NCBI GenBank assembly: GCA_964485555.1
Contig: CAZAJN010000033.1
Coordinates: 1 to 38,962, forward strand
Source: an uncultured Bdellovibrionales bacterium
GTDB taxonomy: Bacteria > Patescibacteriota > Minisyncoccia > Moranbacterales > GWC2-37-73
Direction of reading: 5' to 3'
DNA length: 38,962 bases
The notes beneath the pieces were generated by a model, which was not told the DNA's origin, did no database searches, and worked only from the letters and a program-made list of their open reading frames with translations. Made by a program: the position numbers and the translations under genes. This document shows, piece after piece, positions 21,791 to 26,216 of the stretch. Within the stretch, counting starts at the first letter, position 1; the number at the start of each line of letters is the position of its first letter.

Positions 21791-24445
21791 TCAACAGTTA
21801 CTTACCATGGCAATTCTTGAATTTTTTTCCACTTCCGCAAGGACAGGGGTCGTTTCTGCCGACGTTGTCTTTGTTGATGATGGCCCGCCCGCATCGCTAT
21901 GCGAAGCATTGCGGGCAGGTTTTTGTTCATCAACACTAGCGGCAAATTGCGGTGCATTTTCTTCAGCTCCTTGATATTGAATGTTTTGGGGCTGGACAAC
22001 TTGAGCTGAAGGTTGAGCAGAAACCATGGAAATTTTGAAAATTGTTCGCACAGTTGTTGAGCGCATGTTTTCCATAAGATGAGAAAACAAATGAAAAGCC
22101 TCGCGCTTATATTCAATGAGCGGATCGCGTTGACCGTAGCCTCGAAGACCGATTCCCTGCCTCAAGTAATCGATTTCATCCAAATGATTCATCCAAAGAG
22201 TGTCTATTGTTTGAAGCACGATGGCCTTTTCAATTTGTCTGAGAGCGTCAGTTCCGATTTCGTTTTCCTTTTGAATATAAGCTTCTTTGGCTTTGCTCAT
22301 TGCAAATTCCAACATCAGGGAAATTTTTTCGGCAGTGTTTTTGGATTTATCATCCTTGATTTGTTCCAGTTTTTTCTCATCTTGATCTGCAAAAGCAAAA
22401 ATGTTCCTGAGTTCGTTGGAAATTGTAGCAACGTCCCATTCATAGTCCTCGCCGACGCAATGAGCTGAAATGTTTCTTTCGATTTCCTCTTCAATGTAAT
22501 GCAGGATCTCGTTTTTCACATCGCTCGATGCCAAAATTTCCTTGCGTTTTTTGTAGACAACTTCACGTTGCTTGTTCATCACATCGTCATAGTCCAAAAC
22601 ATGTTTTCGAATATCAAAATTGTAGCCTTCAATTTTTGATTGGGCGCTTTCAATTGTTCGAGAAATGATTGCGTTTTGAATCGGTTGGTCCTCAGGAAGT
22701 CCCAAAGTGTCCATCATGTTTTTCAAACGATCACCTCCAAATCTTCGCATCAATTCATCTTCCAGGGAAACAAAAAATTCAGTGACACCAGGATCTCCTT
22801 GGCGTCCAGCTCGTCCTCTGAGCTGATTGTCGATGCGACGAGCTTCGTGTCTCTCAGTTCCTATAATATAAAGTCCTCCAAGCTCGCGCACGCCTTCTCC
22901 AAGCTTGATGTCAGTTCCGCGACCAGCCATGTTGGTTGCGATCGTCACGGCGCCTTTTTGTCCAGCTCCTGCAATAATAGAAGCCTCTCTTTCATGATGC
23001 TTTGCATTCAAAACTTCATGCTTTATTCCTTCCCTTGCAAGCAAAGCGCTAAGATATTCTGATTTCTCAATAGCCACAGTTCCGACCAAAAACGGTTGTC
23101 CGTTCTCATGGTTTTCTTTGATGGTTTGCACGATGGCATCAAATTTTCCTTTTTCAGTTTTATACACAACGTCTGGAAGATCTTTTCTAATCTGAATCTT
23201 ATTGGTTGGAATTTCAAGCACGTCCAATTTGTACACCTTAGCGAATTCTTCCGCGCTGGTGCTGGCTGTTCCAGTCATTCCGGCCAATTTGTTGTACATG
23301 CGGAAATAGTTTTGGAAAGTGATGGTTGCCAAAGTTCTGGATTCTTTTTGCACTTCCACGTTTTCCTTGGCCTCAATAGCTTGATGCAAGCCGTCACTGT
23401 AACGGCGTCCTTCCATCAATCGTCCAGTGAAATCATCAACAATAATAACTTGCCCGTCTTTGACCACATAATCGCGATCAAGTTTGAACAAAGTCTGAGC
23501 CTTCAAAGATTGTTCCAGATGATGGACATAGTTTATCTTTCCAAGTTCATAAATATTGCCGACTCCAAGTGCGCTTTCCACTTTGGAAATTCCGCTTTCA
23601 GTCAAAGTCACGGCTTTCATTTTTTCATCAATTTCATAGTCCTCTTTCTCTCTGAGGCGTGGCACGATTTGCGCAAATCTTTGATAAAGCTTGGTGGATT
23701 CCGTGTCTGGCGCTGAAATGATAAGTGGCGTCCGAGCTTCATCGATCAAAATGGAATCAACTTCATCCACAATCGCATAGTTCAATTCTCTTTGTGACAT
23801 TTGCTGAGCGCTTTGCACCATGTTGTCACGCAAATAGTCAAAACCGAATTCATTGTTTGTTCCATAGGTGATGTCCGCAGCGTAAGCCTCGCGCCGTGAA
23901 ATTGCTTTCAGGTTTTCCATTTCTACACTCACAGCGTCTGCATCCACAACTTTGGATTCATAGAGATACGATGCGTCATGCATGATGCAAGCAGTTGAAA
24001 GTCCAAGCGCTTGATAGACCGATCCCATCCAATTGCAATCACGTTTGGCCAAATAGTCATTAACTGTCACCACATGCACGCCCTTTCCCTCAATCGCATT
24101 CAAATAGATAGGCAAAGTCGAAGTCAAAGTTTTTCCTTCTCCTGTTTTCATTTCTGTGATTGTTCCACGATGAAGCGCTATTCCTCCAAGCATCTGCACG
24201 TCATAGTGACGTTCGCCGATCACACGCTTGGCAGTTTCACGCACAACCGCAAAAGCCTCCGGCAAAATATCATCCAGAGTTTCATCTTTTTTCAATCGAT
24301 CGCGAAATTCCTGAACTTTTTTAGTCAGCTCTTCATCAGTCAACTTGATCATCACTTCCTCAAAGGAATTTATTTTTCCCACGATCGGGCGAAGCTTGCC
24401 AATCTCGCGTTCATTTGAGCCAAACAGTTTTGAGAATAAAGACAT
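21791..24445 (-). CDS. secA: preprotein translocase ATPase SecA (C-terminal tail apparently frameshifted)
   Basis: [28 protein letters not shown] and [13 protein letters not shown] motor motifs. 884 aa as drawn, ending …[12 protein letters not shown] without the zinc motif. Confidence 0.93.
21798..21896 (-). other. SecA zinc-binding C-terminal motif encoded in the -1 frame
   Basis: Codon-by-codon translation of the alternate frame gives [32 protein letters not shown]. It is bounded upstream by a TAG at 21897-21899. Confidence 0.8.
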
Positions 24446-24556
24446 AGTTTTAAAAATTCCAAATTACCAATTACAAATTCCAAGGTAATTGCTACTACCT
24501 TGTAAATACCAGTTTCTTCAATAATAATACAGCAAAAATACGCCAAAGTCCAAGAC

Positions 24557-24585
24557 TTGACAAAAAGCCTAAATAGGAGTATGAT
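24557..24585 (+). promoter_or_regulatory. near-consensus + strand promoter in the secA-hpf spacer
   Basis: TTGACA (24557-24562), N17, TATGAT (24580-24585). It shares CTTGACA-N8-AAATAGGAGTAT with the promoter at 31125-31151. Confidence 0.5.
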
Positions 24586-24591
24586 TAACAA

Positions 24592-24702
24592 CTACTATCT
24601 TCAGCTAATTTATGACGTAAAGGCTTATTTAGAAGCAAAAATGCAAAAAGCTCGCAAGCACTGTAGAGTTAAAAAGAAGGCTCTCGCCTTCTTTTTAACT
24701 CT
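24592..24702 (+). ncRNA. candidate ~100-nt sRNA (promoter-to-terminator unit without a credible ORF)
   Basis: The predicted TSS is about 7 nt after the -10 box. The unit ends at a perfect 17-bp hairpin at 24665-24702 (AGAGTTAAAAAGAAGGC-tctc-GCCTTCTTTTTAACTCT). Its GC core GAAGGC/GCCTTC is flanked by A5 and T5, so it could terminate in both directions. Confidence 0.4.
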
Positions 24703-24786
24703 TGCATTTCTAAATTTACGTTCCTGAGAGCCGACTTGTGAAGCGAACAGCAATGACCATGTTCAACTAAAAAGCTAATAAGCTAA

Positions 24787-24802
24787 TCCGCCAACTGGCG
24801 GA
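24787..24802. repeat. 16-nt palindrome TCCGCCAACTGGCGGA (family copy 2)
   Basis: Flanked by CTAATAAGCT (24775-24784) and CTAAGAAGCT (24803-24812). Confidence 0.85.
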
Positions 24803-24814
24803 CTAAGAAGCTGC

Positions 24815-25177
24815 TTAAAATCTTGCATTCTCATCCAGCACTACTTTTTTCTTCAAAGACATTGCGCCTCTTTTCTTCAGAGTTCTCAAGCGGTCTTTCA
24901 TGTGCGTGATCTGCTCTTGAAGCTCATCCACCACCATATCAATTGAGGCCTCAATGCTGTCAGTGGTGTTGTCTGCGCGGAACATGTTGCGCGGAGTGTG
25001 AGCCATGACTTCCACTCTGAATTTTCCTTTTTTGTCCAAATCAATTTCAACTTCGGATTTGATGATATTGTCGACAAACTTATCCAAGGTGCTAATTCTT
25101 TTTTCAATATATTCTCTGGTCTTCTCATCCACCTCGACCCCCTTGAAAAAAAATCTGATGTTTTCAATCGTGCTCAT
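24815..25177 (-). CDS. hpf: ribosome hibernation promoting factor / RaiA family (short form)
   Basis: MSTIENIRFFFKGVEVDEKTREYIEKRISTLDKF…FRVEVMAHTP…ADNTTDSIEASIDMVVDELQEQI pattern. I trimmed the start from 25210 to M12 (25177) because the extension would cover the palindrome at 25210-25225. Confidence 0.8.
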   Translation of the reverse strand: MSTIENIRFFFKGVEVDEKTREYIEKRISTLDKFVDNIIKSEVEIDLDKKGKFRVEVMAHTPRNMFRADNTTDSIEASIDMVVDELQEQITHMKDRLRTLKKRGAMSLKKKVVLDENARF

Positions 25178-25209
25178 AATGTTTTTAACCGATACGAACC
25201 TACGAATCA

Positions 25210-25225
25210 TCCGCCAACTGGCGGA
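25210..25225. repeat. 16-nt palindrome TCCGCCAACTGGCGGA (family copy 3)
   Basis: Flanked by CGAACCTACGAA (25195-25206) and CGAATCTACGAA (25227-25238). Confidence 0.85.
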
Positions 25226-25286
25226 GCGAATCTACGAAAATTTATTCGTTGATTCGAATTTACATTAGTAGTTTCGAATCGGATTG

Positions 25287-26216
25287 TTAAAATCCTAGAT
25301 AATTTACTTCTTCCTGCAATTGCACTCCGAATTGGTCGCGCACTTGCTGCTTGACATAGCTTACCAGCATCATGATTTCATCAGCAGTCGCATCCTCAGC
25401 ATTAATGATGTAGTTGGAATGTTTCTCACACACAGCTGCTCCTCCGATTTTTTTCCCCCTAAGTCCAGCTTGCTCTATCACCCACCCGGCTGGCAATTTA
25501 CTGTTTCTTGCCTGTTCACCTTTTTCTTTTTCAAAATCTTCCTTAAGTTTTTGATCTTCCACGATTGGGTTCATGAAAAATGATCCAGCACTTTTATATC
25601 CACCAAGTCCCATCCCCACACGTTTGGCAATCGTCGCACTTGTTTTGCCTTGAGTCTCTTTGTCGTCAGCGGTTTCAAGTTCCAGTTTGGTTGAGATGAC
25701 AATCAAATTTGGGTTTTTCTTGAAGATGCTTGAACGATATGAGAAATTGCAATCTTCATTGGCAAAAACGATTTCCTGATTCTTTTCCAGATCGTACGCG
25801 GTCACCATCTTGATGACTTGGCATATTTCAGCGCCATAAGCTCCGGCATTGCCACGCACAGCACCGCCAACAGTGCCGGGAATTCCAGCCATGAGCTCGA
25901 GCCCAGACAAGCCAGCTTGCGCGGCCATGTTTATGATTTTTATCAAAGGCACGCCAGCTTCTATTTCAAGCACGTTGTCATTGACGCAAGCAGAATTCAT
26001 CTTGACCTTAATGATCAAGCCGTCAAAACCCTTGTCACTCACCAAAAGATTTGTTCCTCCGCCAAGCACATACAAACCCAATTTCTTGTCTTTGGCAAAA
26101 TTCACAGCTTCTTTCAATTCTTCCAATGATTTTATTTCCACAAAGAACTTTGCATTTCCTCCAACTCTGAAAGATGTCATCGGCGCTAATGGAATATTTT
26201 TCTGTACGTTAATCAT
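25287..26216 (-). CDS. murB: UDP-N-acetylenolpyruvoylglucosamine reductase
   Basis: PLAPMTSFRVGGNAKFF, LGGGTNLLVSD, GIPGTVGGAVRGNAGAYG. Confidence 0.92.
   Translation of the reverse strand: MINVQKNIPLAPMTSFRVGGNAKFFVEIKSLEELKEAVNFAKDKKLGLYVLGGGTNLLVSDKGFDGLIIKVKMNSACVNDNVLEIEAGVPLIKIINMAAQAGLSGLELMAGIPGTVGGAVRGNAGAYGAEICQVIKMVTAYDLEKNQEIVFANEDCNFSYRSSIFKKNPNLIVISTKLELETADDKETQGKTSATIAKRVGMGLGGYKSAGSFFMNPIVEDQKLKEDFEKEKGEQARNSKLPAGWVIEQAGLRGKKIGGAAVCEKHSNYIINAEDATADEIMMLVSYVKQQVRDQFGVQLQEEVNYLGF

Follow-up and report, generated by a model that had tools for sequence, protein, structure and literature searches.

The window, by which we mean the whole 38,962-nt stretch of DNA analysed, comes from a genome of ~1.08 Mb (91 contigs, ~80% complete, 40% GC) whose named matches are Candidatus Moranbacteria / Moraniibacteriota, in the Patescibacteria. 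It carries a secA open reading frame whose 884-residue product has the domains expected of the SecA ATPase: the DEAD motor domain (PF07517, 419.5 bits), PPXD (PF01043, 147.5 bits), the P-loop NBD2 (PF21090, 268 bits) and the wing/scaffold (PF07516, 219 bits). Pfam found no SEC-C domain in this product, which had no exact match beyond the window's own record; a terminator scan called no intrinsic terminator after the gene. The DNA for the SEC-C zinc finger, or metal-binding domain (MBD), is present in the -1 frame (Table 1). Translation of the minus strand of 21798-21899 in that frame yielded a 32-residue peptide with the SEC-C motif, scoring 45.2 bits against PF02810 (cut-off 20.4, E 8e-12). 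This confirms the central claim of the first-pass annotation, that the zinc finger of SecA lies in the -1 frame, and the coordinates, closing TAG and GC-rich patch (21882-21892) that it gave are all present in the window sequence. The closing TAG lies within the loop of an inserted GC-rich hairpin unit and hence was brought in with that unit rather than being a feature of the host gene.

Table 1. Features at the 3' end of secA in the window.
Feature	Position	Strand	Remarks
secA open reading frame of the record	21791-24445	minus	884 aa; stop TGA at 21791-21793
SEC-C (MBD) coding DNA	21798-21881	minus	27 aa plus stop TAA at 21798-21800; -1 frame relative to secA
Out-of-frame secA tail	21794-21883	minus	30 codons; frame of the record across the MBD-coding DNA
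TAG closing the -1 frame upstream	21897-21899	minus	in the loop (C-ATAG-C) of the inserted 36-nt unit
GC-rich palindromic unit CCTGCCCGCAATGCTTCGCATAGCGATGCGGGCGGG	21884-21919	minus	36 nt; 12 aa in the secA frame
Junction	21881-21883	minus	Pro codon CC, then ATC; one base missing between 21882 and 21881
Host inverted repeat, left arm TGTTGATGA	21927-21935	minus	9 bp; brackets the insertion site
Host inverted repeat, right arm TCATCAACA	21872-21880	minus	within the I-I-N-K codons

SecA was present in 30 of 31 related genomes. The secA 3' ends of relatives, a comparison that the first-pass annotation had called for, have the zinc finger in frame at every one of the 18 loci where that end is complete; the window record is the exception. 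The motif in the -1 frame is therefore not a chance match. Among full-length SecAs of the clade, 106 of 113 keep the MBD. SecB, the classical partner of the SecA MBD, was absent from all 21 relatives in which it was sought. Because the MBD is kept in the 18 relatives and in the great majority of clade SecAs, it is under selection in this lineage despite the absence of SecB; such retention agrees with a part in ribosome binding, as put forward by Jamshad et al. 2019 (PMC6620043). Nor was decay seen in the MBD codons of the window, which over 27 codons have seven synonymous and four conservative differences from those of the same-genus genome G002, with all ligands intact.

Many clade SecAs (P0015, P0056, P0061, P0073, P0077, P0078, P0095 and others) have a longer MBD variant, CPCGAKKEDGTPKKYKNCCGK, with 14-15 residues between the ligand pairs. 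This variant was missed by the precomputed Pfam SEC-C annotation, and the C-terminus of some of these proteins reads ...CCYPKFG.

An alignment of secA 3'-end DNA placed the hairpin unit of the window between the Lys and Pro codons of a conserved QKP. The inserted block occurs in that alignment only in the window and, at a different site in the tail, in a locus from another genus (L003), where a near-identical block lies in the secA tail in frame (PASNASRSDAGW). The unit consists of a 4-nt unpaired 5' tail, CCYG, followed by a 32-nt bulged hairpin, as determined from an alignment of 25 copies. In this alignment 93.7% of cells were paired and five of 12 pairs had changed on both sides, compared with 28-49% pairing and 0-1 such pairs in slid controls. 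The fold of the unit as ssDNA was -12 to -13.6 kcal/mol (z about -3), and Rfam held no family matching the 36-nt hairpin.

The size of the unit was fixed by comparing filled and empty sites. A trxB-like gene of G002 carries two in-frame units, one of which splits the other exactly in half (18+36+18 nt); the orthologue in the window's own genome has neither and is shorter by exactly 72 nt. Two more filled/empty pairs (L025 and L028) differ by exactly 36 nt, and there was no target duplication at any of these three sites. Being exactly 36 nt, or 12 codons, the unit could not by itself have shifted the secA frame. We considered a window unit one base shorter than the consensus and rejected it; no base of the unit is lacking, and the gap falls in the adjoining host codon. 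These results bear on an insertion reading in the first-pass annotation, that a small GC-rich insertion like other palindromes of the window had broken the frame and that removal of the 11 nt at 21882-21892 would rejoin it. A palindrome was indeed inserted, but it is 36 nt long rather than 11, is frame-neutral and is not the cause. The 11-nt block proved to be the last 9 nt of the unit (its 3' arm) plus two host C's. Its deletion restores the frame arithmetically, 11 being 2 modulo 3, but the unit boundaries are fixed by the nested copy and the three filled/empty comparisons, as well as by three other carriers of a unit at the same site, and an 11-nt insertion as the cause has practically no chance of being correct.

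At the junction, the window reads CAAAAA, then the unit, then CC ATC ATC AAC, so that the Pro of QKP is without its third base; just two bases separate the 3' end of the unit from the gap. From the same organism there is an independent contig, Logan SRR446575_3117 (1617 nt), which matches window positions 21890-20278 with 99.88% identity over 1614 nt. It starts GGGGGGCGGGCCAATCATCAACAATGAC... and its junction, GGGCGGGCCAATCATCAAC (GGGCC-A-ATCATC), has an extra A, the sole gap relative to the window, giving CCA ATC ATC AAC. In this contig P-I-I-N and the whole zinc finger, including the CxCx8C[HC] motif that is absent from the secA frame of the record, are in frame with the unit and secA. An extra base that restores a single frame, the observation that the first-pass annotation had said would remove any biological interpretation, thus exists, as judged from assemblies rather than reads. 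Several relatives also have CCAATCATCAAC at this junction, and a random error is unlikely to have reproduced it in the Logan contig. That contig starts just ~10 nt upstream of the junction and differs from the window at three other places in its first 25 nt (the two leading bases, and AAT vs AAA); its end seems to be noisy or to derive from a second haplotype. A third sequence, AMFJ01024290 (3963 nt), is 100% identical to window positions 21910-25872 and stops 16 nt into the unit. Two assemblies therefore fail or disagree exactly at the secA hairpin. Exact-pattern scans for the post-junction DNA of either allele gave no match in the genome or metagenome contig sets.

Because an in-frame sequence exists in the Logan contig, the MBD is pristine and the assemblies fail or disagree at the hairpin, we favor a one-base consensus or assembly error, or a minor variant, beside a hard-to-sequence hairpin as the likely source of the missing A. 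Of the options raised at first, an assembly or sequencing error of 1 nt is now the best supported, and the record would carry the wrong version or a minor one. Some results run against this reading. Probes for frame breaks (69 comparisons from relatives and 185 from 379 kb of G002) identified secA as the sole true one in about 235 orthologue comparisons, from which it follows that random errors and real frameshifts are both rare in this genome; the assembly is otherwise clean. A second candidate, in contig C83 near 12593, was rejected as two adjacent genes with conserved DNA. Single-base deletions are also uncommon in short-read de Bruijn assemblies. The in-frame evidence, moreover, comes from a Logan contig whose possibly noisy or second-haplotype end is ~10 nt from the junction, and a real allele could persist, given that MBD loss is tolerated in E. 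coli (PMC6620043).

The frameshift could, on the other hand, be a genuine allele in all or part of the population, arising from an imprecise insertion or a later slip that deleted one A. SecA would then keep its linker and the 12-residue insert and end in 30 junk residues, making it a natural SecA-ΔMBD. Consistent with this are the clean consensus of the record and the scarcity of other frame breaks; an insertion that breaks the frame would persist only if the sequence beyond it could be dispensed with, and the secA tail is such a place. SecA-ΔMBD and SecA-ΔCTT support viability in E. coli (PMC6620043), the relatives lack SecB, and the AAT vs AAA difference in the Logan contig could mark a second haplotype. 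Yet the same organism also yields an in-frame sequence, the relatives and the clade at large retain the MBD, whose codons show no decay in the window, and in no other carrier does the unit come with a broken frame. Furthermore, ΔMBD was worse than loss of the whole tail in E. coli, because the linker stays autoinhibitory (PMC6620043). On balance we consider a genuine allele unlikely.

The favored reading, an error beside the hairpin, implies the following course of events. The 36-nt hairpin repeat has landed in the flexible secA linker, exactly between the codons for the Lys and Pro that precede the zinc finger. Having 12 codons, being open in the host frame and making no target duplication, it by itself adds only 12 residues. 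The separate deficit of one base 3' of the unit, CCA ATC becoming CC ATC, would have arisen as a consensus error beside a hairpin that assemblers handle badly, and the organism would make full-length SecA with a 12-residue insert and an intact zinc finger.

Apart from the window, a second clade SecA with its MBD in the -1 frame was encountered (P0076, from L172; ENA ERZ2648158 NODE_3540, coverage 2.2). The 3' end of this gene, GCTCAGCAAAA-CCAATCATAAAT, has an A-run one base short at the same QKP codons and has no hairpin unit. Given the very low assembly coverage, this frame break is probably an error too. Poly-G or GC-rich junk was also seen at contig ends of the window's genome, e.g., C4:1-66, C23:11535-11594, C39:1-59 and C62:1-45, which suggests that untrimmed low-quality read ends entered the assembly input.

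Programmed -1 ribosomal frameshifting or transcriptional slippage, with the hairpin as stimulator, was another way in which the two frames might be joined. The MBD frame is intact, and the RNA fold of 21840-21940 is strong (-43.1 kcal/mol, z -5.9). But the zone in which a shift is permitted, 21882-21896 (GAT GCG GGC GGG CC), has no in-phase X XXY YYZ heptamer, which bears out the first-pass annotation on the lack of a canonical slippery site. The hairpin lies at or upstream of this zone instead of 5-9 nt downstream, where a stimulatory structure would be placed, and the sole A-run (GGAAAAAAATTC) falls within the zinc finger, past the point at which a shift could be of use. Nor is a two-frame layout found in relatives. 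All 18, and all other carriers of the unit, use one continuous frame, so that there is nothing conserved that would need recoding. The frameshifting option that the first-pass annotation had left open therefore fared badly, and we judge recoding to be highly improbable.

Beyond secA, the unit is a dispersed repeat. Its core occurs in three copies in the window's own genome (in secA and on contigs C46 and C78), with a variant on C56, in 21 of 33 genomes of the family, and in 33 of 301 genomes of the class, across 29 genera; a reversed control pattern gave no matches. About 10 of 30 copies lie within long open reading frames, mostly in frame as P-A-R/S-N-A-S-R/H/Q-S-D-A-G-G/W. With its length of 12 codons and its REP-like form, the hairpin repeat represents a new family, which is scattered through Moranbacteria and other Patescibacteria. 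The 21-nt core is identical or has 1-2 mismatches across more than 20 families whose SecAs are just 50-70% identical. Such near-invariance suggests that the unit either has spread horizontally in recent times or is under very strong constraint. At least three further families of GC-rich palindromes were noted in the window's own genome (GCGGCCTGCCTGCCGGTAGGCAGGCTTCCG..., CCCGCCTCGACTCGCGAAGACGATCGCTCGTAGACGCGAGGCGGG and CCCAGGGCAAGCCCTGGACCCTTTGGGCTCACGAGGCAAGC), at sites such as C22:7284-7323, C55:2884-2920, C58:11388-11427, C48:3797-3857, C48:5714-5773 and C78:9022-9055.

SecA is a recurrent host of the unit: 15 of the 113 full-length clade SecAs carry one or two units in frame. In four of them (P0048, P0055, P0060 and P0078) the unit is in frame at exactly the window's site. 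Where DNA for these carriers was available, the unit is followed by a whole CCN codon, with a sequence that differs from carrier to carrier (CCA ATT in L170, CCC ATT in L166, CCG ATA in L171). On a tree of the SecA core, from which inserts and tails had been stripped, four state changes are required to account for the five same-site carriers, window included. The units at this site are nearly identical and their flanks different. This pattern points to repeated insertion at one SecA site; spread of the same-site units by recombination of secA tails could also account for it. A second SecA site was observed at the start of PPXD (residues about 269-300), with the arrangement …KE-PARNASQSDAGG-DYEVDEK…, in P0064, P0070, P0075 and P0097. 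Carriers at this site do not cluster on the core tree, the three that were scored needing three changes.

The secA insertion site is bracketed by a perfect 9-bp host inverted repeat (Table 1), which places the unit in the loop of a hairpin that was there before it. Of 30 unit sites (L003 and L021-L050), 10% had flanking stems of at least 8 bp, compared with 0.8% of control positions (p 0.006). As most sites are without a flanking inverted repeat, a preference for hairpin loops is a lead only. Units nested in the centre of other units were also seen in L047, P0097 and P0098. A tentative extension, to which we give somewhat less than even weight, is that the unit is an active, horizontally spreading and site-preferring Patescibacteria hairpin element of 36 nt, which would have hit the site between QK and P at least four times, that between KE and DYEVDEK at least three times, and the loops of its own copies. 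If so, it would rank as a "protein-colonising REP", mobilised by some enzyme and possibly with a preference for the tips of DNA hairpins, and the one-base loss in the record could be the scar of an imprecise insertion.

Taken together, these results indicate that the -1-frame SecA zinc finger is most probably not a biological feature, and the SecA of the record should probably not be annotated as being without a zinc finger. GC-rich hairpin repeats in AT-rich CPR genomes may cause contig breaks and local consensus errors that mimic recoding. The real biology at this locus is a frame-neutral hairpin element that repeatedly colonises the SecA linker and other housekeeping genes, and that recurs, almost unchanged in sequence, in many Patescibacteria families. 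The unit offers a tractable case of REP-like movement and target choice in ~1 Mb genomes, and its copies also bear on how much insertion the SecA linker tolerates.

Of the known systems with which the unit can be compared, the closest in form are the REPs, whose GTAG and CGTC super-families were described by Di Nocera et al. 2013 (PMC3733652). Like REPs, the unit is an imperfect palindrome, rich in GC and in the short, 20-40 bp range, that has an unpaired tetranucleotide at one end, and it is dispersed with variable copy number among related genomes, some copies being intragenic and adding amino acids (PMC3733652). Its imperfect stem-loop is supported across copies. Unlike REPs, its unpaired tag is CCYG rather than GTAG or CGTC throughout the 25-copy alignment, GTAG or ATAG occurring just in the loop; copies are few, at 1-15 per genome, and about a third are intragenic. 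The RAYT / IS200-type Y1 transposase family PF01797 had no match in the window's own genome or in two of four other carriers, and the two matches in other carriers each lie at least 2.8 kb from a unit.

Chenal et al. 2025 (PMC11893778) described Ssn GIY-YIG ssDNA nucleases together with their NTS/SRM hairpin repeats, and here too hairpin repeats of 20-50 nt occur in genomes with several small single-domain GIY-YIG genes. Small genes of this type (85-135 aa; loci L151-L162) number 4-6 per ~1 Mb genome in G000, G002, G039, G043 and G017, which is high for such small genomes. The unit flanks a GIY-YIG gene at none of the 12 loci, one degenerate half-copy lying ~125 nt away. Unlike the SRM consensus (PMC11893778), it is without an HGTC/CGTC head, the window's copy having no GTC on either strand.

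At the protein level, the frame of the record, if real, would resemble the E. coli SecA-ΔMBD and SecA-ΔCTT variants (Jamshad et al. 2019, PMC6620043) in having a linker without a zinc finger. Those variants were engineered truncations. In the window a real loss is improbable, and the linker would also have 12 + 30 foreign residues. In yeast mitochondrial genomes, mobile GC clusters are likewise short, GC-rich and palindromic, spreading through AT-rich DNA and at times entering genes. They differ from the unit in host domain and sequence, and no 12-codon rule is known for them. Rickettsia palindromic elements (RPEs) are about 100-150 bp long and confined to Rickettsia. The unit is like them in forming in-frame palindromes in essential genes, tolerated as an extra peptide (cited in PMC3733652), as documented by the ~10 of 30 copies within reading frames, the 15 of 113 SecAs and the clean trxB-like, L025 and L028 cases. 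It is unlike them in being exactly 36 nt, outside the RPE length class, and in having Patescibacteria as hosts. By these tests of membership the unit falls outside the described families, but in behaviour it resembles a REP or an RPE.
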